A stretch of DNA of 7,328 bases from a virus (taxonomy: Duplodnaviria; Heunggongvirae; Uroviricota; Caudoviricetes), in IMG/VR virus record IMGVR_UViG_2660238209_000013, positions 1 through 7,328 of that record; one strand, 5' to 3'. Positions 1 to 7,328 of this stretch are shown here, piece by piece (the first letter of the stretch is position 1; every line of letters begins with the position of its first letter). Under the pieces are notes generated by a model, which did no database searches, was not told where the DNA came from, and was given only the letters and a program-made list of their open reading frames with translations. The position numbers were made by a program, and so were the translations under genes.

Positions 1-1341
1 CTGACCCTTTGCAGGGAAGCTGGGATACGTAACAGGATGATCCTGAAATCCCGCCAGATTGGGGCGACCTGGTATTGTGCACAGGAAGCTCTGCTGATGG
101 CGCTGCGTGACGATGTGGCGCAACCTTACCAGCGTAACCAGATTTTTTTGTCTGCGTCGCGTCGTCAGGCGTTCCAGTTTAAAAGCATTATTCAGAAGGC
201 TGCGGCTGAAGTTGATGTGGAGCTGAAAGGGGGCGATAAAATCATCCTCTCCAATGGCGCAGAGCTGCATTTTCTCGGCACTTCTGCTGCGTCGGCGCAG
301 TCCTATACGGGCAATTTTTATTTTGATGAATTTTTCTGGGTCAGTCGCTTTGCTGAACTGCGCAAGGTGGCTGGCGCTATGGCAACCCTCAGCGGACTGC
401 GGCGCACCTACTTCTCCACGCCATCCACCGAAACGCACGAAGCATACGCCTACTGGAACGGCGACCGCTGGAACGAGAAAAAGGCCACGCATAAACGCCG
501 GCGTTTTTCTGTGGACTGGAATACGCTGCATAACGGGCTTATCTGCCCTGACCGGACGTGGCGGCAAATTGTCACGCTGGAAGATGTGGTTAATCACGGC
601 TGGAAACACACCGATATCGACGAAATTCGTGATGAAAACACCGAAGACGAGTTCCTCAATCTCTATATGTGTGAGTTTGTCCGCGAAGGGGAATCGGCAT
701 TTAACCTGAATATCCTGATTGGCTGCGGTGTTGACGGATACGACGACTGGAAAGACTGGAAACCTTTTGCTCCCCGCCCGATGGGGAATCGTCCGGTATG
801 GATTGGGTATGACGCAAACGGCAGCAGTGGCAACGGCGACAGCGGCGCTGTGTCTGTGGTGGTTCCTCCGGCTGTTCCTGGTGGCCGTTTTCGAACGGTG
901 GAGACGCGACGCGTTCAGGGGCTGGAGTTTGAAGAACAGGCCAGAGTCATTGAAGAGTTCACGTGTCGCTACAACGTGGAACACATCGGCATTGATGTGA
1001 CGGGCGGGAACGGGGAGGCTGTTTATCAGATAGTGAAACGGTTTTTCCCTGCTGCTATTCCGTACACCTTCACGCTGTCATCAAAACGGTCGCTGGTACT
1101 GAAAATGCTGCAAATAATGCGTGCCGGGCGGTGGGAATACGATCGCGCCGAACGCGAGCTGGTCGCGGCCTTTAACGCCGTGCGTAAGGTGAAAACACCG
1201 GGCGGTTTTATCACTTACGAAACGGACCGCGCGAGGGGGATCAGCCACGGCGACCTTGCGTGGGCAACCATGCTTGCTGTCATTAACGAACCAATTGGCG
1301 GCGAAGGAGAAAACGAGCGTTTCACGGTTATGGAGTTCTGA
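1..1341 (+). CDS. P: Phage terminase large (ATPase/endonuclease) subunit, gpP-like; 5'-partial, the reading frame is open from base 1 so the gene starts upstream of the window
   Basis: Frame 1 has no stop from position 1 to the TGA at 1339-1341 (447 codons in window). The 434-aa ORF-track translation resembles the C-terminal nuclease region of P2-family terminase large subunits. Its stop overlaps the start of the next gene (ATGA at 1339-1343), as in the P2 PQ operon. Synteny is P-Q then accessory region then A. Identity from recall and synteny, not from a search. Confidence 0.8.
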   Translation: MTLCREAGIRNRMILKSRQIGATWYCAQEALLMALRDDVAQPYQRNQIFLSASRRQAFQFKSIIQKAAAEVDVELKGGDKIILSNGAELHFLGTSAASAQSYTGNFYFDEFFWVSRFAELRKVAGAMATLSGLRRTYFSTPSTETHEAYAYWNGDRWNEKKATHKRRRFSVDWNTLHNGLICPDRTWRQIVTLEDVVNHGWKHTDIDEIRDENTEDEFLNLYMCEFVREGESAFNLNILIGCGVDGYDDWKDWKPFAPRPMGNRPVWIGYDANGSSGNGDSGAVSVVVPPAVPGGRFRTVETRRVQGLEFEEQARVIEEFTCRYNVEHIGIDVTGGNGEAVYQIVKRFFPAAIPYTFTLSSKRSLVLKMLQIMRAGRWEYDRAERELVAAFNAVRKVKTPGGFITYETDRARGISHGDLAWATMLAVINEPIGGEGENERFTVMEF

Positions 1342-2387
1342 TGAGCAGAAAAAATAAAAAAGTGCGCATGAGTTCACGCATTGATCTCGCTGATGCGCTC
1401 AGGAAAGAATCGTCGCTCAGTGCATTCACTTTTGATGGTCCTTATCGCCTGACCGGGCATGATTTGCTGGACAATATGTACTGTGCTGATAACGGGCGGT
1501 GGTATGAAACCCCGGTGGACTGGTACGGTCTGGCAAGAGCCGCCCGGCAAACGTCCTGGCATCAGTCTGCGCTTTACTTTAAGCGCAATGTATTGCTCGG
1601 CTGCTATATTCCGCACCCGCTGCTTTCCCGGCAGGATTTCTCGGCGCTGGCGCTGGACTGGTTTGTGTTCGGTAACGCATACCTTGAGCTTCGAAGCAAT
1701 ATGCTCGGCGAACCGCTTAAATTACGGCACGCACTGGCGAAATACATGCGACGCGGAAGCGATCTTGAATCATGGTGGTATGTGCAGGATGGCAAGGACG
1801 CGTTTCAGTTTCGCCCTGGCAAAGTGTGCCACCTGATGAATCCGGATATTAACCAGGAAATCTACGGCATGCCGGAATATCTCGGCGCATTACTCTCGGC
1901 CAGCCTGTCTCATTCGGCGGACATGTTCAGAAAACTGTATTACGACAACGGATCCCACGCCGGGTGCATCATCTACATCGGTGCAGCGCAGGTAAACCGC
2001 GAAAGCATGGACTCCCTGAAAGAAACATTACAGGGTGCACGTGGTAGTGGTGCATTTAAAAACGTGCTCATTCATGCGCCCAACGGGGGCAAAGAGGGGG
2101 TGCAAATTTTGCCGTTCCAGCAGATCACCGCAAAAGATGAGTTCATGAATGTTAAGGCGGCATCCCGTGATGATGTGCTGGCTGCGCACCGTGTTCCGCC
2201 GCAACTGATGGGGGCGATGCCGGGCGAAAAAAGTGCGTTTGGTGATGTGGAGAAGGCCGCGCGGGTTTATGCAATTAACGAGCTGATGCCCGTTATGGAG
2301 GCCATGAAGCACATCAATGACTGGCTTGGCGAAGAGGTGATCCGTTTTAATTCTTATGCTCTTCTTGATGAAAAAACAGCCCCGTGA
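1341..2387 (+). CDS. Q: Phage portal (capsid portal) protein, gpQ-like
   Basis: 348-aa ORF, about the size of P2 gpQ (~344 aa). ATG at 1341 overlaps the terminase stop (ATGA). GGAG Shine-Dalgarno at 1332-1335, 5 nt upstream. Followed by a hairpin plus T-tract terminator overlapping its TGA stop. Identity from recall and synteny. Confidence 0.8.
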   Translation: MSRKNKKVRMSSRIDLADALRKESSLSAFTFDGPYRLTGHDLLDNMYCADNGRWYETPVDWYGLARAARQTSWHQSALYFKRNVLLGCYIPHPLLSRQDFSALALDWFVFGNAYLELRSNMLGEPLKLRHALAKYMRRGSDLESWWYVQDGKDAFQFRPGKVCHLMNPDINQEIYGMPEYLGALLSASLSHSADMFRKLYYDNGSHAGCIIYIGAAQVNRESMDSLKETLQGARGSGAFKNVLIHAPNGGKEGVQILPFQQITAKDEFMNVKAASRDDVLAAHRVPPQLMGAMPGEKSAFGDVEKAARVYAINELMPVMEAMKHINDWLGEEVIRFNSYALLDEKTAP

Positions 2388-2406
2388 TGGGGCTGTCCTT
2401 TTTACC
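2376..2406. terminator. Bidirectional rho-independent terminator between the convergent portal gene and the 174-aa gene
   Basis: Stem cagcccc (2377-2383) / ggggctg (2389-2395) with loop gtgat. It is flanked by an A-run upstream (aaaaaa, 2371-2376) and a T-run downstream (ccttttta, 2397-2404), so either strand gives hairpin plus U-tract. It overlaps the Q stop (2385-2387) and the TAA stop of the minus-strand gene (2402-2404). Confidence 0.6.
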
Positions 2407-2926
2407 AGAGTTGAACCATTTTCTGGGTGCCGTCAGGCTTGAGATTATCAATTTCAGAGAGAACGTAATATTGAATGGCTTCACAAACGGTGGTGTAGGG
2501 TGAATTACCTTCTTTAAGTGGCACGATATTATTATTAACGCGAACCTGTATTTCATCGTTATACATTGCGATCGAAAGAGGAGTATGCACGAAGGCGACT
2601 TCGCCAGGTGTGTCGTCAACCACTGTCTCAATGCTGAAAATCAGTTTTCGCTCATCATTGCCGCCCCTTGCTTTGGGGGTAGAGGCAGGAATCTGAGATA
2701 AAGGCATTCTGCGAAACCCTTCAGTTGTTTCCAGTCCGCATGAAACGTAATGCTGGCGATTACCGTCGCTATCAGTCCATGTCTGTGATGGCAGCTCCAG
2801 AGAGATTTCATAAGCATCTACAATTCCCTGAGCAAGGTGTACAAGCGGGGTCAGATCTTCATTGCGGCGAAAACTTTCCTTTACCTGCTCTCGTTTTTCT
2901 CGTAACTGCTTGTAATTAATGACCAT
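2402..2926 (-). CDS. Hypothetical protein, 174 aa, no family recognised; cargo gene in the Q-A accessory region
   Basis: ORF track gives 2402..2965 from a GTG. I prefer the internal ATG at 2924-2926 (protein begins MVINYKQLREK) because a GGAGG Shine-Dalgarno lies 8 nt upstream on the minus strand (AATGGAGGCTGTTTTATG). Ends with TAA at 2402-2404 inside the bidirectional terminator. Mixed-charge, globular-looking composition with no obvious transmembrane segment. Confidence 0.6.
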   Translation of the reverse strand: MVINYKQLREKREQVKESFRRNEDLTPLVHLAQGIVDAYEISLELPSQTWTDSDGNRQHYVSCGLETTEGFRRMPLSQIPASTPKARGGNDERKLIFSIETVVDDTPGEVAFVHTPLSIAMYNDEIQVRVNNNIVPLKEGNSPYTTVCEAIQYYVLSEIDNLKPDGTQKMVQLW

Positions 2927-3025
2927 AAAACAGCCTCCATTGATTTCTTTGCTCGTATTTTGCACTTATGAAGTGTGGTCGGCAAGGTGCCGCATCACTG
3001 ACGCGCTTCGCTTGTCTGCTGCTTC

Positions 3026-3054
3026 GCCGGGGCATAAAAAATTTATGCCCCGGC
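3026..3054. repeat. Perfect 13-bp inverted repeat with 3-nt spacer (gccggggcataaa aaa tttatgccccggc)
   Basis: Read directly: 3026-3038 is the exact reverse complement of 3042-3054. No U-tract follows on either strand, so this is not a classical intrinsic terminator. Candidate protein-binding palindrome or RNA hairpin. Confidence 0.85.
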
Positions 3055-3343
3055 TCTCCAGCTCCTGTATCAATCAGATAATTTCACGACGCCTTCCAGT
3101 TTATCGCCACCATCGACGGTCAGACTCTTACGCAATCCCACCGCGTTGACTGTATGTTCTCGCTGCCTCAGTGCGATTTTGACGGCCTTACCTTTCACCC
3201 CATCAAATCAAAAGCCCTCACGCCTTTTTCATGCTCAGCGTGAGAAATATGGCCATTCTGTTGTGTCTCTGCGACATCGTTCAGGGAATGCTGTTTACCC
3301 CCCTGAAACGCGGGCTGTTCCCCCGTCACCTGCGCGTAGAAAA

Positions 3344-3390
3344 AACGCGTTTTTTGTGCACGTACGGATCCTTGACGGATCCAGCCGCCA
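3344..3390. repeat. Cluster of short palindromes and a direct repeat (aaaaaacgcgtttttt; gtgcac; cgtacg; acggatcc ttg acggatcc)
   Basis: Read directly: aaaaaacgcgtttttt (3344-3359) is self-complementary. acggatcc occurs twice, 3 bp apart (3363-3370 and 3374-3381), each containing the palindrome ggatcc. Confidence 0.7.
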
Positions 3391-3425
3391 CGCGGGCCGG
3401 AAGTACAAAAAGTCGTTCAAAAAAA

Positions 3426-3455
3426 TTGTGCAAACTTGTGCACTATCGTGCAAAC
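3426..3455. repeat. Three GTGCA(A/C) repeats phased ~10 bp apart (ttgtgcaaac / ttgtgcac / cgtgcaaac); candidate iterons or operator
   Basis: GTGCAAAC at 3428-3435, GTGCAC at 3438-3443, GTGCAAAC at 3448-3455. The ~10-bp (one helical turn) spacing is typical of protein-binding iterons. A further GTGCAC is at 3355-3360. Confidence 0.5.
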
Positions 3456-3480
3456 AAAAAAAAGCGCCTTATCGGCGCTT
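3456..3480 (-). terminator. Rho-independent terminator of the 89-aa ORF transcript
   Basis: On the minus strand: stem aagcgcc / ggcgctt (plus-strand 3462-3468 and 3474-3480), 5-nt loop, followed by an 8-nt U-run (plus-strand A-run 3456-3463). It starts 9 bp downstream of the ORF stop (TGA, plus-strand 3489-3491). Confidence 0.65.
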
Positions 3481-3488
3481 CAAAAATA

Positions 3489-3758
3489 TCAATTGTTGCT
3501 GTGTATTAATCGCCAACCACGAACATATGCTTCATAAGCATCTCTGTGCCTTACAGTTCCAGCCTGGCTAAACGGAATGTTAGCTAAAACTAAATCATTC
3601 TGAGCCATAGCGCGTCCTTCAAGCGCATCTTTTATGCCTAGCTCAAAAGCACAGGCAGCGCATTTGTGCCGACCTTCTTGTCCTTGATATTCAGGGAGAG
3701 ACAGAAATGTTGGGTTATAACGATGAGGGTTCTTGCAAATACCTGTTTTAGCCCGCAC
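3489..3758 (-). CDS. Hypothetical small protein, 89 aa, GTG start; contains Cys8 and a CxxC at residues 33-36
   Basis: ORF with GTG start (plus-strand 3756-3758) preceded by a GAGGT Shine-Dalgarno 6 nt upstream (ATGAGGTAAATAAGTG) and an in-frame TAA immediately before the GTG. Followed by an intrinsic terminator. Preceded by a structured, terminator-like leader. No family recognised; coding status not certain. Confidence 0.4.
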   Translation of the reverse strand: MRAKTGICKNPHRYNPTFLSLPEYQGQEGRHKCAACAFELGIKDALEGRAMAQNDLVLANIPFSQAGTVRHRDAYEAYVRGWRLIHSNN

Positions 3759-3775
3759 TTTATTTACCTCATAGG

Positions 3776-3959
3776 AAAAATATGCGTGCCTTTACAGAGG
3801 TGCGTGTAAGCAATAAAATATACGACGCACATTTTGATTTACTTCGGAAGGCACGCATATCAGGTTAAGTGAGTCCGACCGAGTTCTACGCCCCAATAGT
3901 TGCTGCTATTGGGGCGTTTTGCATGGACAATGCCGCGCAATTATCTTGTCGCTCACAAT
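3776..3959 (-). ncRNA. Candidate structured 5' leader or small RNA upstream of the 89-aa ORF, ending in a terminator-like hairpin
   Basis: Minus-strand transcript predicted from the promoter at 3967-3994. It contains the antisense of a perfect 12-bp hairpin (3888-3917), then a 13-bp long-range stem (3780-3792 pairing 3848-3860) enclosing a 55-nt loop with its own 6-bp inner stem (gtgcgt 3800-3805 / acgcac 3825-3830). A run of 4 U follows (plus-strand A-run 3776-3779), then the SD and GTG of the 89-aa ORF. Read from sequence; no covariance or expression support. Confidence 0.3.
3888..3921 (+). terminator. Hairpin plus short T-run; possible plus-strand intrinsic terminator (or just a stable hairpin in the minus-strand leader)
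   Basis: Perfect 12-bp stem acgccccaatag (3888-3899) / ctattggggcgt (3906-3917), 6-nt loop, followed by ttt g (3918-3921). No convincing plus-strand promoter found upstream, so function on the plus strand is uncertain. Confidence 0.35.
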
Positions 3960-3966
3960 GCGAACG

Positions 3967-3994
3967 ATCTTACAAAAAGGCACATTACTGTCAA
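3967..3994 (-). promoter_or_regulatory. Strong sigma70-like promoter on the minus strand (TTGACA - 16 nt - TAAGAT) with AT-rich upstream region
   Basis: Minus-strand sequence attatcTTGACAgtaatgtgcctttttgTAAGATcgttcg. The -35 is a perfect TTGACA (plus-strand 3989-3994), spacer 16 nt, -10 TAAGAT (plus-strand 3967-3972). The upstream 60 bp is AT-rich (UP-element-like). A GATC (3966-3969) overlaps the -10. Confidence 0.5.
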
Positions 3995-4122
3995 GATAAT
4001 TGATCGTTTTAATCGATAGATAATAGACAATCTATTTGTTTAACAGATCGATTATTGAAGTAAGTGCGCCAAATGGAATGATACTGTTTCTATAAATGTG
4101 AGCATTTTTCGCGCAGATGCTT

Positions 4123-4434
4123 TTACTCAGGAAATAACGCCCGGATATTCCCAGCCATCTGGCTGGTTATCTTAGCCACTGGTGCAGACTGTGCTTCAAA
4201 CTTTTTTGAGCTGATTTGTGTCACAGGTAACATCTCATCATCAGCCCATGCGGCCAGTCGGTAAGCCTCTGCCGGATTCGTCTTCAGAAGTGCCAGCCCG
4301 GCCAGAAAAGCCACGCGTTGGCCGCTTTTGCGGGCTTCTGGTGTAAGGCTGTCCAGCCAGGCGCATGCTTCTCCTTCGTTCTTGACGGCAGCTGGCTTCA
4401 GATAGAAACTTATTCTTCTGGTTGGTGTCGTCAT
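4123..4434 (-). CDS. parR: ParR/StbB-like small DNA-binding protein (putative centromere-binding adaptor), 103 aa
   Basis: Immediately downstream of the ParM-like gene (4-nt gap). Strong AAGGAG Shine-Dalgarno 7 nt upstream of the ATG, inside the end of the upstream gene. Size and motifs (N-terminal RRISFYLKP, AGLAL, C-terminal LFPE) resemble plasmid R1 ParR as I recall it. Gene order repeats-parM-parR matches R1 parC-parM-parR. Confidence 0.7.
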   Translation of the reverse strand: MTTPTRRISFYLKPAAVKNEGEACAWLDSLTPEARKSGQRVAFLAGLALLKTNPAEAYRLAAWADDEMLPVTQISSKKFEAQSAPVAKITSQMAGNIRALFPE

Positions 4435-4438
4435 TGGT

Positions 4439-5398
4439 TTACTCCTTGTTCATTGCGTACAGCCCATTAACCAGAGCAAAATGTGGCACCCCGTCCGTGA
4501 TGAAAGTCGCATTAACTCCGCAGGCTTCGCGGATAGCGGGTGCCACAATCTCCGCCCCTCCACCGACAACCATCACCCGCCCGTAACCGGAAAAACCCGC
4601 CAGCGCGCGGATCACTCGTTGTTTCAGTGTCTCCTCCTTTTCACGAATAACCGCCATCAGGCTGTTGTAATGCGCGTCATTGTGAATGTGCTGGCGCAGC
4701 CAGGCTTCATCGTGACGGTGCTCAATAATGGTATTGGCGATGTGGTGACTGGTACGCATACCGTTAGTGGCCATCACCGACAGCACGGCATCAGCCATCA
4801 GGGAAACGCCTACGTGTGGATCGCAAAACACCTGGCTGATACCTGCCAGCTGCCCCTGAACCTTTGCCACATCCAGCGTGGTTCCGCCCAAATCCACAAT
4901 CAGCAGGGATTCAAACGGACTCATGTCAGCCAGTGCCTTAAAGCCAGCCGGAATGGATTCAGGCATAACCCGCACGTTACGGATAGTGAATGCTTCGCCG
5001 TTCTGGTACTCCACCGGGCGCATAACGTTCGCTTTTTTGCGGTTGATGTTGGCTATGTCCGGCTGTGCGTTTGTGTCGAAATACTCGCTCAGTGGCAGGG
5101 TGACAACCACATCCACCTCCTGTGGCGTGATGCCTGATTTGACCAGCGCGTGATGAATGGCAATGACATTCACATCACTGTATTGGTATTGCGTGTCGGT
5201 CGTCTGGACAAAGCGATCGCTGACCGGATCAAAACCATAGCGCACGCCATCAAGCATGTAGTTCGCGGGCTGCGTGCCACCGAACGGCGCAGACCATTCC
5301 GACTTGAAGCTGTTCGGGCTGATGGCGTTGCGGCGTTCGCCGTTCTCAGTCCATGCCAGCTTGATGTTGGTGGAGCCGTCGTCGATACAAATTTTCAT
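4439..5398 (-). CDS. parM: ParM/StbA-family actin-like segregation ATPase, 319 aa
   Basis: ATG at plus-strand 5396-5398 with an AAGGA Shine-Dalgarno ~8 nt upstream. The translation carries the ParM/actin-fold signatures throughout: N-terminal DDGSTNIKL (phosphate-1), SPNSF, YSDVNVIAIHHAL, VMPESIPAG, IVDLGGTTLD (phosphate-2), GGGAE (adenosine motif) and C-terminal LVNG. It appears collinear with plasmid R1 ParM over the full length (from memory). Confidence 0.88.
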   Translation of the reverse strand: MKICIDDGSTNIKLAWTENGERRNAISPNSFKSEWSAPFGGTQPANYMLDGVRYGFDPVSDRFVQTTDTQYQYSDVNVIAIHHALVKSGITPQEVDVVVTLPLSEYFDTNAQPDIANINRKKANVMRPVEYQNGEAFTIRNVRVMPESIPAGFKALADMSPFESLLIVDLGGTTLDVAKVQGQLAGISQVFCDPHVGVSLMADAVLSVMATNGMRTSHHIANTIIEHRHDEAWLRQHIHNDAHYNSLMAVIREKEETLKQRVIRALAGFSGYGRVMVVGGGAEIVAPAIREACGVNATFITDGVPHFALVNGLYAMNKE

Positions 5399-5427
5399 GT
5401 CGCTTTTCCTTATGTTGATTAATTAAT

Positions 5428-5541
5428 CGTTTACGGGATTCTGAAATCCCGTTTTTGCCTGTTTTGTGCGCGCTTCATATATCGCTGCGCGTTTTTTGCT
5501 CATTTACGGGATTCGTGAGTCCCGTTTCTGTCTGTTTTTTG
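5428..5541. repeat. Two ~40-bp direct repeats, each containing an 8-bp-arm palindrome (acgggatt ... aatcccgt) followed by a T-rich tract; candidate parC-like centromere or operator
   Basis: Copy 1 tttacgggattctgaaatcccgtttttgcctgttttgtg (5430-5468) and copy 2 tttacgggattcgtgagtcccgtttctgtctgttttttg (5503-5541) are ~80% identical, 73 bp apart. Copy 1 lies between the A stop and the parM start; copy 2 lies inside the last ~25 codons of the A reading frame. Confidence 0.5.
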
Positions 5542-6916
5542 TTTCCACTGGTCAGGCCACCCTGCAGCAGGTCTGCTTTGCGGCTGGCGCGTTCAGTGGT
5601 TTCACTGATTCTCTGTGCGTGCTCTGCGTCGCGGATGGCGCGCAGCATGTCAGAAAGCACGGTAACGGGTGTTTTCATGGTGTTCTGATCCTGCTGAAGT
5701 GCGGATGCCAGGCGTGCGGCGGCTTCGGGGTCTGATGCCCCCAGCTGTGCCAGATAGCTGGCGACCGGGTTATGGCGGATCTCCGTGCTGCTTACGCCGT
5801 GATTACGGCTCAGGTGCTGCCAGAGCTGCGTGATTCGGCTGTCCGGGCGGGGATCCGGTTTGCGTACAATTTCATATCCCTGCGGTGCAATGATGCTGCC
5901 GTCAACGTACAGGCTGCCGCCCCGTAGCAGGTGCTGCATCTGCTGTTCACCGATATGCAGGCCGAGAGATTCGGCAGACTCCCGCCATTCTTTAGCGAGT
6001 AATTCGTGGTTATCAGGCAAAGGCCGCTGCTGTTTGCGGCTCTGTGTCCAGCTCTGCATTTCATCACTGCTGTTTTTTGCCTGTTTGTCACGAAGCGAAC
6101 GCATCAGCGCCCGGCGTTCGTGCCGTTTCAGTGAGCGCATCCATTCGTTCACTTCAACGCCGTCAGGGAGCTGCGGCCACGGTGCTGGCCGTTCTTCCGG
6201 CTGTTCTGCCCCGTTGTTGTCCGTTTCCTGTACACGGGGACAGTTATTGCCACGAGTCCAAGGGGCGGCAGGGCCGCCCTGAAGGTCAAAACCATTTTCG
6301 CGGGCGCTGTCTTCCGTTTCCGGTTTACGTCTTACCAGTTTCCAGTTATCCGGATGCGTGCACACACGGGAGGATTCCCCGATGAGTGGTGACCAGATCC
6401 CGTAAATCTGTACGCTCTGTTCGCCGTAATCATTCAGCTCATCTGCGAGGTCGTAGGCGGTGCGAATCAGGTAGTCTTTGCGTGGAACAAGTACGCCGCC
6501 CTGTTTTTCAATGTAGGTGGCAAAACACCCGGCATCGGCGGCAGCGAGTACCGCATCCATTGCATCATCTTTCAGCCGTTGCGGGCCTTCCGGATTGCGT
6601 GCCATCTGGCTGGCAAGGCGGCGCAGTTCACGCCACACCTGACGGGAGGGGATGCCAAAGAACTGGAACTGACGGACCCGGTGAAGGCGCGCCCAGCCGA
6701 TGGCGCGCTCCACGCTCTCGGCCATTGATTTTCCGGTTTCGTGGTCAACGCGTGGCTTGCCCGTTTTCGGGTCGATGCCATCCACGGCGCGGCTGTCCAG
6801 GTTCTTTCCGATGTAGGTGGCGATGTAGCTGGTTGGTGTGCCTTTTGAGCCGTCGACATACTCCGCCTTAAAACGCGGAGTTATGTCATCGCCCAGCTCG
6901 TGGCGGTCCTCCTGAA
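5475..6916 (-). pseudogene. A: 3' portion of a gpA-like rolling-circle replication initiator (phage replication endonuclease), N-terminal part removed by IS insertion
   Basis: The minus-strand frame is open from the IS boundary (~6917) to the stop at 5475-5477 (ORF track starts at GTG 6785 but no stop intervenes upstream). I translated the sequence just inside the boundary as ...GSKGTPTSYIATYIGKNLDSRAVDGIDPK..., which contains a Y-x-x-x-Y-x-x-K motif (codons at plus-strand 6813-6827) like the paired catalytic tyrosines of P2 A and phiX174 gene A proteins. The frame runs straight into the IS terminal repeat. Position opposite Q across the accessory region matches P2 gene order. Confidence 0.65.
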
Positions 6917-6970
6917 TGAACCGCCCCGGAAATCCTGGAGACTAAACTCCCTGAGAAAGAGGTAAACAGG

Positions 6971-7297
6971 ATGACTAAAAATACTCGTTTTTCCCCCGAA
7001 GTCCGTCAGCGGGCGATTCGTATGGTTCTGGAAAGTCAGGATGAATATGACTCACAGTGGGCGGCAATTTGTTCCATTGCCCCAAAGATTGGCTGTACGC
7101 CGGAGACTCTGCGTGTCTGGGTTCGCCAGCATGAGCGGGATACCGGGGGCGGTGATGGTGGGCTCACCAGCGCTGAACGTCAGCGTCTGAAAGAGCTGGA
7201 ACGTGAAAATCGTGAACTGCGCCGCAGTAACGATATCCTTCGCCAGGCTTCCGCTTATTTTGCGAAGGCGGAGTTCGACCGCCTCTGGAAAAAATGA
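6971..7297 (+). CDS. IS3-family transposase OrfA (helix-turn-helix / leucine-zipper subunit), 108 aa
   Basis: Complete ORF. Protein [23 protein letters not shown]...[36 protein letters not shown] has the typical IS3-family OrfA HTH plus coiled-coil and a C-terminus ending at the frameshift window. AGG Shine-Dalgarno-like GAGG at 6958-6961. Confidence 0.9.
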
Positions 7298-7328
7298 TGC
7301 CACTGCTGGATAAGCTGCGTGAGCAGTA
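7294..7328 (+). CDS. IS3-family transposase OrfB (DDE catalytic subunit), 5' end only; expressed by -1 frameshift from orfA
   Basis: ATGATGCCACTGCTGGATAAGCTGCGTGAGCAG (7294 onward) translates [11 protein letters not shown], which matches the IS629-type OrfB N-terminus as I recall it. It is in the -1 frame relative to orfA and overlaps its stop. Runs off the window. Confidence 0.7.

Follow-up and report, generated by a model that had tools for sequence, protein, structure and literature searches.

Type I toxin-antitoxin (TA) loci, such as hok/sok, symE/symR, tisB/istR-1, zorO/orzO, and ralR/ralA, combine a small protein gene, the mRNA of which carries a long structured 5' untranslated region (UTR) with a sequestered Shine-Dalgarno (SD) sequence, and a short antisense RNA that is transcribed from its own near-consensus promoter and pairs with this UTR. 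These components are packed into compact, horizontally mobile cassettes on prophages and genomic islands. We analyzed a locus with a similar layout in a 7,328-nucleotide (nt) stretch of a Caudoviricetes virus (IMG/VR record IMGVR_UViG_2660238209_000013, positions 1 to 7,328; hereafter, the window). Its core is the minus-strand region 3776-3994, which precedes a small open reading frame (ORF) for a protein of 89 amino acids (aa); here, in addition, the cassette lies beside a ParMR partition module. Two convergent promoters, a GC-rich hairpin with covarying and strand-specific base pairs, an architecture conserved across homologous loci, and mobility of the cassette were observed in silico. Together, these features probably denote an antisense-RNA-controlled, type I TA-like prophage cassette (Table 1).

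In the proposed mechanism, the minus-strand sigma70 promoter would drive an mRNA that consists of a ~200-nt structured 5' UTR, the 89-aa ORF, and its own terminator. The convergent plus-strand sigma70 promoter, located within the 5' UTR, would produce a ~96-nt cis-antisense small RNA (sRNA) that ends at a 12-bp hairpin and the adjacent U-tract. This sRNA would pair with leader nt ~41-135 and keep expression of the 89-aa protein down. Three routes of repression can be envisaged: the long sRNA-leader duplex could be cleaved or degraded, the 3' arm of a long-range helix could be freed and trap the translation start region, and the two convergent polymerases could collide.

The resemblance to type I TA loci is one of predicted layout, and membership in this class cannot be claimed. 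The predicted antisense RNA has the required pairing potential (62-96 nt of perfect complementarity to the 5' UTR), SD-containing helices are predicted for the mRNAs of most families, and the target lies upstream of the ribosome-binding site, as it does in tisB/istR-1 and zorO/orzO. In contrast to the known loci, the antisense RNA here would be cis-encoded, with perfect complementarity over ~96 nt. Furthermore, classical type I toxins are small (usually <60 aa), hydrophobic, and membrane active, whereas the protein encoded here is 89 aa long, hydrophilic, and basic; it contains a conserved C-H...C-C pattern, its predicted fold is new, and it is not a membrane peptide. As SymE and RalR show, however, a small hydrophobic membrane toxin is not a universal feature of these systems, and it is the loci with non-membrane toxins or with an upstream target that the present design resembles most. 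We found no homology to known type I families in Pfam, NCBIfam, PADLOC, or Rfam, and no description of the module in Rfam, protein family libraries, or the searchable literature (queried by accessions, type I TA, and defence).

Other antisense systems share single traits with this locus. In IS10 RNA-IN/RNA-OUT and traJ/FinP of F-like plasmids, convergent or overlapping promoters likewise yield a stem-loop antisense RNA of 70-100 nt directed against the mRNA 5' end. GATC (Dam) sites are located in or beside the sense promoter of IS10 pIN and in the pSLT traJ/finP region; their placement at the sense promoter is similar here, where the enrichment of GATC points to a possible Dam dependence. The IS10 and FinP antisense RNAs cover the ribosome-binding site, whereas the one predicted here does not, and the regulated genes are unrelated. 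P22 sar, lambda OOP, P1/P7 C4, and P4 CI are also short phage RNAs with a terminator hairpin that act on a phage transcript. The element studied here belongs to none of them by sequence or structure, and they control lysis-lysogeny or antirepressor genes, whereas the gene that would be controlled here is a mobile accessory gene shared by several unrelated phage backbones. The first-pass annotation, made from the sequence of the window, had noted a likeness to P4-type immunity RNAs; this was not borne out, as the window gave no match to the C4/CI families RF01695 and RF03163 at E-values up to 1, in a search that did detect these families in another locus, L064. The P22 sar RNA (RF00262) yielded 22 bits against a gathering score of 43 (E = 0.84), on the plus strand and over model positions 34-63 only, which correspond to the terminator hairpin. 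The Rfam scan that the annotation had proposed as a check, run permissively (E up to 1) on the window and nine related loci, returned no relevant match and no family that covers the element. Locus L064 itself is a P22-like contig with the cassette in which positions 266-464, ~1 kb upstream, comprise a C4 antisense RNA, a1/b1 targets, and an isrK-like RNA, that is, a P1/P7-type immunity region.

Table 1. Predicted and observed features of the cassette, in window coordinates
Feature	Positions	Strand	Basis
AT-rich upstream region of the cassette	3995-4122	-	Left boundary (~4122) from P88 homology; conserved with the divergent cassette L005/L042
Sense sigma70 promoter, TTGACA (3994-3989)-16-TAAGAT (3972-3967)	3967-3994	-	Promoter scan
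Structured 5' UTR of the 89-aa gene, ~200 nt, predicted transcription start	3759-3960	-	Fold z-score and modular layout
Perfect 12-bp GC-rich hairpin (ACGCCCCAATAG/CTATTGGGGCGT, loop CAGCAA, 3917-3888 on the minus strand), interpreted as an intrinsic terminator for the antisense sRNA, with the U-tract at 3917-3920	3888-3917	+	Compensatory changes and strand-specific wobble pairs
Predicted cis-antisense sRNA, ~96 nt, both ends predicted	3825-3920	+	Promoter, hairpin, and UUUUG
Antisense sigma70 promoter, TTTACA-17-TAAAAT, inside the 3' half of the long-range helix	3791-3819	+	Unbiased scan of the window
Long-range 13-bp helix, ATATGCGTGCCTT (3860-3848) with AAGGCACGCATAT (3792-3780), 55-nt structured loop	3780-3860	-	Sequence and fold
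SD GAGG (3770-3767), GTG start (3758-3756), and 89-aa ORF (3758-3489)	3489-3770	-	ORF call
Intrinsic terminator closing the cassette, GAAGCGCC-GATAA-GGCGCTT followed by T8	3461-3481	-	Terminator scan; right boundary (~3453) from P88 homology

Convergent promoters and the strand of the hairpin

For comparative analysis, we collected 80 loci from viral contigs and 80 loci from species-representative genomes, along with a divergent Escherichia coli cassette (L005). The viral loci comprise 51 distinct upstream regions, which can be grouped into about five sequence families with little alignable sequence between families. Among Enterobacterales and Orbales, homologous cassettes are present in ~60 distinct prophages (P2-like, P22-like, and others) and genomic islands. 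The common layout includes a sigma70-like sense promoter, placed in every family 166-238 nt upstream of the start codon; a 5'-terminal hairpin; a GC-rich hairpin with a family-specific stem sequence; a third helix; an invariant TGTAAAG heptamer 28-41 nt before the start codon; and, in most families, a short hairpin with the SD sequence in its 3' arm. The element is a candidate new RNA family for Rfam.

The TGTAAAG heptamer is the complement of CTTTACA. In the window, it belongs to a plus-strand promoter that points toward the 12-bp hairpin. On the opposite strand of all 51 viral upstream regions, CTTTAC[AT] is followed, after exactly 17 nt, by TAnnnT, with eleven different -10 hexamers. The same motif was found in 13 genome loci, from Gilliamella, Providencia, Proteus, Enterobacter, Yersinia, Rahnella, Pantoea, Citrobacter, and E. 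whittamii, and a TTTACA-17-CACAAT variant in six further loci, from Klebsiella, Citrobacter, Buttiauxella, and Dryocola. When 13 representatives that had diverged from one another were compared, the only peaks of conservation were the -35 hexamer and -10 positions 1, 2, and 6, and for this reason the motif was interpreted as a sigma70 promoter rather than an RNA motif.

The assignment of the 12-bp hairpin to a strand rests on comparative evidence. Read in the sense direction, this hairpin is preceded by AAAA and followed by AGAACU, and a U-tract (UUUUG) adjoins it on the plus strand only. We identified 39 distinct versions of the hairpin, located in nearly all loci 62-99 nt from the predicted antisense start (132 nt in L067, which contains an insertion); the distance is 62-75 nt in most families and 92-96 nt in the family that includes the window (hereafter, the window family). 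In a strand-neutral search of these 39 versions, the antisense strand had 13 G·U pairs and the sense strand none, along with 16 other mismatches. When 22 versions were aligned in a fixed register, all 11 base pairs changed on both sides (68 cells, a number reached in 0 of 500 shuffles), and pairing amounted to 95.4% with 11 wobble cells on the plus strand compared to 90.9% with no wobble cells on the minus strand; for most measures, 0 of the 500 shuffles reached the observed value. This alignment was used in place of RNAalifold on a MAFFT alignment of one family, which recovered only a partial hairpin, with the stems out of register. Because G·U pairs occur exclusively on the plus strand and a conserved promoter precedes the hairpin on that strand, we read the hairpin as an opposite-strand terminator. 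Most likely, it is the terminator of the predicted ~96-nt cis-antisense sRNA and not an element of the sense leader.

This strand assignment bears on several proposals of the first-pass annotation. The compensatory changes in homologues that it had named as a check are present in all 11 hairpin pairs, with the wobble cells confined to the plus strand. The suggestion of a separate sRNA that shares the sense promoter is not supported, given the lack of a sense U-tract after the hairpin and the wobble pairs, which in the 22-39 variants compared are all on the other strand. More generally, apparent hairpins of a "leader" may belong to the opposite strand, which calls for caution in the interpretation of such structures.

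The predicted sRNA folds into a single-stranded 5' tail, an internal stem-loop, and the terminator hairpin (z = -3.9). The equivalent unit in other families is 62-75 nt long. The antisense RNA predicted for the P22-like family begins with a conserved 5' tail (CGAGAUCUCAAG) and continues through an internal stem-loop to a terminator; the G·U pairs produced by A-to-G changes in its internal stem (L063/L125 and L139) are likewise confined to the antisense strand. In the group from Klebsiella, Citrobacter, and Buttiauxella, the hairpin is followed on the antisense strand by T6-7, a combination that is predicted to be an unambiguous intrinsic terminator.

The hairpin was found in both orientations between close relatives (L049 and L051, L083 and L080, L066 and L068), with CGGCAA or TTGCCG and CGTCAA or TTGACG loops; because both loop orientations occur among close relatives, we conclude that the palindrome has been flipped as a unit. 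Such flipping, which is typical of DNA palindromes, could indicate that the hairpin and TGTAAAG are sense-strand or DNA-level elements, for example, an RNA stabiliser, a protein-binding site, or a recombinogenic palindrome, with a fortuitous likeness to a promoter. Sense-strand pairing as high as 90.9% and the location of TGTAAAG next to the SD hairpin are compatible with this explanation. A neutral or DNA-level palindrome, however, is expected to show wobble-compatible changes equally on both strands, in contrast to the 0 on the sense strand and 11-13 on the other. The exact 17-nt spacing between the -35 element and TAnnnT is kept in every family while the spacer sequence varies, and, in one subgroup, the antisense strand carries strong T-tracts after the hairpin. 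We consider a DNA-level or sense-strand role of these elements highly improbable.

Convergent promoters could also function by transcriptional interference only, in which case the antisense transcript would have no function of its own. The precedent is pR/pL of coliphage 186, a member of the P2 family. Both there and here, sigma70 promoters face each other at distances of ~60-130 bp and interference is expected; the predicted start sites of the present locus are ~130 bp apart in the window and ~100 bp apart in the other families. However, the 186 pair is a lysis-lysogeny switch, whereas the pair described here belongs to a cargo cassette and one of the partners is predicted to make a discrete, terminated sRNA. 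The compensatory changes and the wobble pairs specific to the antisense strand indicate that the terminator hairpin is selected at the RNA level, and a defined unit of 62-96 nt with a conserved internal stem-loop would be superfluous for interference alone. Interference as the sole mechanism appears quite unlikely.

Leader structure and the sign of regulation

The near-consensus sense promoter described in the first-pass annotation matches the consensus at 10 of 12 positions and is one of only two promoter-like sites within 3300-4500. The perfect 12-bp hairpin, the 13-bp long-range stem with its 55-nt loop, the U-run, the SD sequence, the GTG codon, and the 89-aa ORF are all present where the annotation had placed them. 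The 212-nt leader folds with -71.4 kcal/mol, compared to -54.2 +/- 4.2 kcal/mol for shuffled sequences (z = -4.13; 0 of 200 shuffles were as stable), and both helices are found in its minimum free energy (MFE) and centroid structures. The leader is thus highly structured, as had been claimed, and its architecture is conserved across families. The folding check requires one amendment, namely, that the 12-bp hairpin is best assigned to the plus strand by its wobble pairs. RNA-based control of the small ORF, also proposed on first pass, is still the best interpretation.

The 13-bp helix is the version of the third common helix found in the window family. In every family, the antisense promoter fills the loop and the 3' arm of this helix, and the antisense RNA, which is predicted to start inside the helix, is complementary to the 5' arm; therefore, the sRNA would compete with the 3' arm for the same partner. 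In the window, the 5' arm lies within the antisense target and the 3' arm overlaps the antisense -35 element. The predicted sRNA is the perfect complement of the leader segment given above and covers the 5' arm, with the SD sequence and the start codon outside the region of complementarity. Among the SD-containing hairpins of most families, 8 G·U pairs were found on the sense strand compared to 3 on the antisense strand.

In the first-pass annotation, a terminator was placed inside the leader and attenuation or riboswitch-like control was suggested. Under such a scheme, the 13-bp helix and the U-run would end most transcripts, and read-through would be set by a ligand, a protein, or translation of a mini-ORF. 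This would account for the high degree of structure in the leader and for the UUUU (3779-3776) that directly follows the 13-bp helix, ~18 nt before GTG. However, the helix closes a 55-nt multibranch loop, and neither helix was called as a minus-strand terminator in the terminator scan. Moreover, the U-run and the mini-ORF are limited to the window family, which is nearly invariant (at least 99% identical in 165 of 167 genomes), whereas the related cassettes contain, in place of the U-run, a local hairpin that sequesters the SD sequence, and no consistent U-tract. No riboswitch or leader family in Rfam matched the region, and an attenuator would leave the conserved opposite-strand promoter and the strand-specific wobble pairs unexplained. 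Attenuation is, in our assessment, very unlikely. The 22-codon mini-ORF itself is present (ATG at 3832). The role of a leader peptide or toxin envisaged for it was rejected: it lacks an SD sequence, it has no counterpart in the other families, and four representative leaders contain no ORF of at least 12 codons.

GATC sites provide a further indication of how the sense promoter could be controlled. GATC is ten-fold enriched around this promoter (30 observed compared to 3.0 expected). In 16 of the 18 diverged representatives, a GATC lies 10-11 nt upstream of the -35 element (11 nt in the window, at 4005-4002), and in about half of the representatives, a second one overlaps the 3' end of the -10 element (3969-3966 in the window). 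This placement suggests that Dam methylation or SeqA could act on the sense promoter.

With respect to the sign of regulation, blocking the antisense target in silico lowered the accessibility of the start region (SD and start codon) or left it unchanged in most families; the outcome, mostly repressive but inconsistent, was not used to fix the sign. The opposite sign would apply if the sRNA were an activator that pairs with the 5' arm of the long-range helix, frees the SD sequence, and turns translation on. In the MFE structure of the window, the 13-bp helix is extended by pairing of ACCU (3864-3861) with AGGU of the SD sequence, and SD accessibility increases slightly, from 0.32 to 0.41, when the target is blocked. 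Because this SD partner is located inside the antisense target, pairing could open rather than close the SD sequence. In most other families, however, the SD sequence is in a local hairpin that is not covered by the target, and blocking the target lowers SD and start codon accessibility or leaves it as it is. When more coding sequence is included, the SD sequence of the window pairs instead with a downstream CCCUCA. Furthermore, long perfect RNA duplexes are the usual substrates of RNase III, which does not favor activation. We consider an activating sRNA unlikely, and our best guess is that the antisense RNA would repress expression in the window.

Several points nonetheless weigh against a repressing, terminated antisense RNA or narrow the basis on which it was proposed. 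Apart from the position of the SD partner and the increase in SD accessibility in the window, the window has only a short U-tract behind the hairpin (UUUUG, with one U paired), and the tract is weak in many families (UUUCC, UUCCCUUAU); for this reason, 3'-end formation in those families is uncertain; the consensus terminator scan did not call the 12-bp hairpin. The hydrophilic 89-aa protein does not resemble classical type I toxins, and the transcripts are predicted from sequence. As for the comparative data, the later genome loci were selected with a promoter regular expression, so that their agreement with the promoter motif is partly circular, and many of the compared sequences are related, such that significance is exaggerated by the shuffle controls. 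Outside Enterobacterales and Orbales, no instance of the architecture was detected; the promoter expression may simply not apply there.

The 89-aa protein family

The product of the 89-aa ORF matches PHROG 3941 (phrog_3941; unknown function; E = 6e-49) and no family in Pfam, NCBIfam, or PADLOC. A single-sequence protein search retrieved only two near-identical matches; a full HMMER scan yielded 172 cluster representatives, and a profile search 1784 proteins. The residues C8, H12, R13, L21, Q25, R30, H31, C36, A37, G41, S64, Q65, A66, G67, R70, H71, A77, and G81 are invariant. We consider the 89-aa ORF to be a real gene of a large family that has no named match. This widespread small protein (>1700 cluster representatives) is accompanied by a conserved, unannotated RNA control module, which offers a handle on its function.

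AlphaFold (AF2) modeling (pLDDT 86) predicted a soluble helical fold with two similar helix-containing halves for this hydrophilic, basic protein. A sequence search of PDB gave no match, and the model had no fold match in PDB; the best Foldseek hits in BFVD, with E ~1, included non-significant matches resembling ribosome modulation factor. In fusion proteins, the domain precedes DUF3883/NOV_C nucleases (PD-T4-1, PDC-S36, and TmtA-like) and HNH nucleases or follows DpdB/DndB-like and WYL domains, and tandem duplication occurs (proteins P0075, P0068, P0076, P0047, P0100, P0020, and P0003 in these comparisons). The fusions suggest a nucleic-acid-binding or sensing role in defence-type proteins.

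A more specific hypothesis, which we put forward tentatively and regard as possible rather than probable, is that the cassette is a new type I TA or abortive-infection module. It would comprise a nucleic-acid-binding effector with a possible metal site, a ~96-nt antisense antitoxin, and a sense promoter gated by Dam or SeqA, and a disturbance of transcription or methylation, for example, by phage infection, replication, or loss of the element, would be required for the protein to be made. If toxicity or a protective effect of the protein were established, RNA-antitoxin systems would gain a class of non-membrane effectors.

Genomic setting of the cassette

The 801 bases around the region match the chromosome of E. 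coli O111:H- 11128 at 100% identity, and the same 801 bases are present in 167 of 5426 complete E. coli genomes, in each case on the chromosome; a search of the plasmid collection with the region yielded no match. The region is also carried by the Xuanwuvirus (P2-like, Peduoviridae) phages 520873 and 503458. The order of genes on the minus strand is gene A (interrupted by an IS3-family element), ParM, ParR-like (Plasmid_stab_B), the promoter and leader region, the 89-aa ORF, and a 187-aa ORF, after which the portal and terminase genes follow on the opposite strand. Within the P2-like prophage, ParM/ParR lie on one side of the region and the portal gene on the other. The gpA-gpQ interval is a published hotspot of accessory and anti-phage genes in P2-like phages, about one-quarter of which carry a partition module in this interval (PMC9122126).

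In phage P88 and its relatives, homology ends at the parR stop codon (4123) and restarts at 3452. Because positions 4122-3453 are missing from these phages, the region under study can be assigned to a discrete cassette of 670 bp (4122-3453, minus strand) that contains the upstream region, promoter, leader, 89-aa ORF, and terminator; in P88 and others, the cassette is replaced. Like other cargo of the gpA-gpQ hotspot, it lies between the replication endonuclease and portal genes and varies among related phages. By these comparisons, 4122-3453 is a self-contained accessory ("moron") cassette that a P2-like (Xuanwuvirus/P88-like) E. coli prophage carries in its gpA-gpQ hotspot.

Homologous genes occupy other accessory slots as well. 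In a P22-like Salmonella phage, the gene is located just downstream of cI, in the rex position, and in a Providencia phage, between Q and the lysis genes. This distribution indicates that the cassette moves among unrelated phage backbones. The gpA-gpQ interval and the lambdoid cI-proximal slot are rich in phage-defence and lysogenic-conversion genes, which are usually found by protein domains alone. In Salmonella phage BIS08P22, a "hypothetical protein" annotated between cI and the homologous gene (L004, 2165-2401) spans the promoter and leader of the cassette and is probably a miscalled ORF.

The surroundings of the cassette in the window have several features of their own. Gene A, encoding the replication endonuclease (5475-7328), is truncated by IS1203, an IS3-family element, the frameshift pseudoknot of which corresponds to the Rfam ALIL match at 7252-7328; with gene A truncated, the prophage is probably replication-defective. 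The ParM/ParR-like (Plasmid_stab_B) partition module (4123-5398, minus strand) is located inside an integrated P2-like prophage. The 187-aa ORF (2402-2965, minus strand), which adjoins the portal gene, belongs to PHROG 5091 (unknown function) and has no family in Pfam, NCBIfam, or PADLOC; it is missing from phage 520873 and therefore appears to be a second, independent cargo gene. The P2 cos sequence was searched for in the window and not found. Immediately 3' of the ORF terminator, there are three GTTTGCAC repeats (3420-3455), which fall in a stretch (3452-3400) common to many P2-like phages. A terminator-like hairpin is present on the plus strand at 3332-3350, within a 500-nt non-coding gap.

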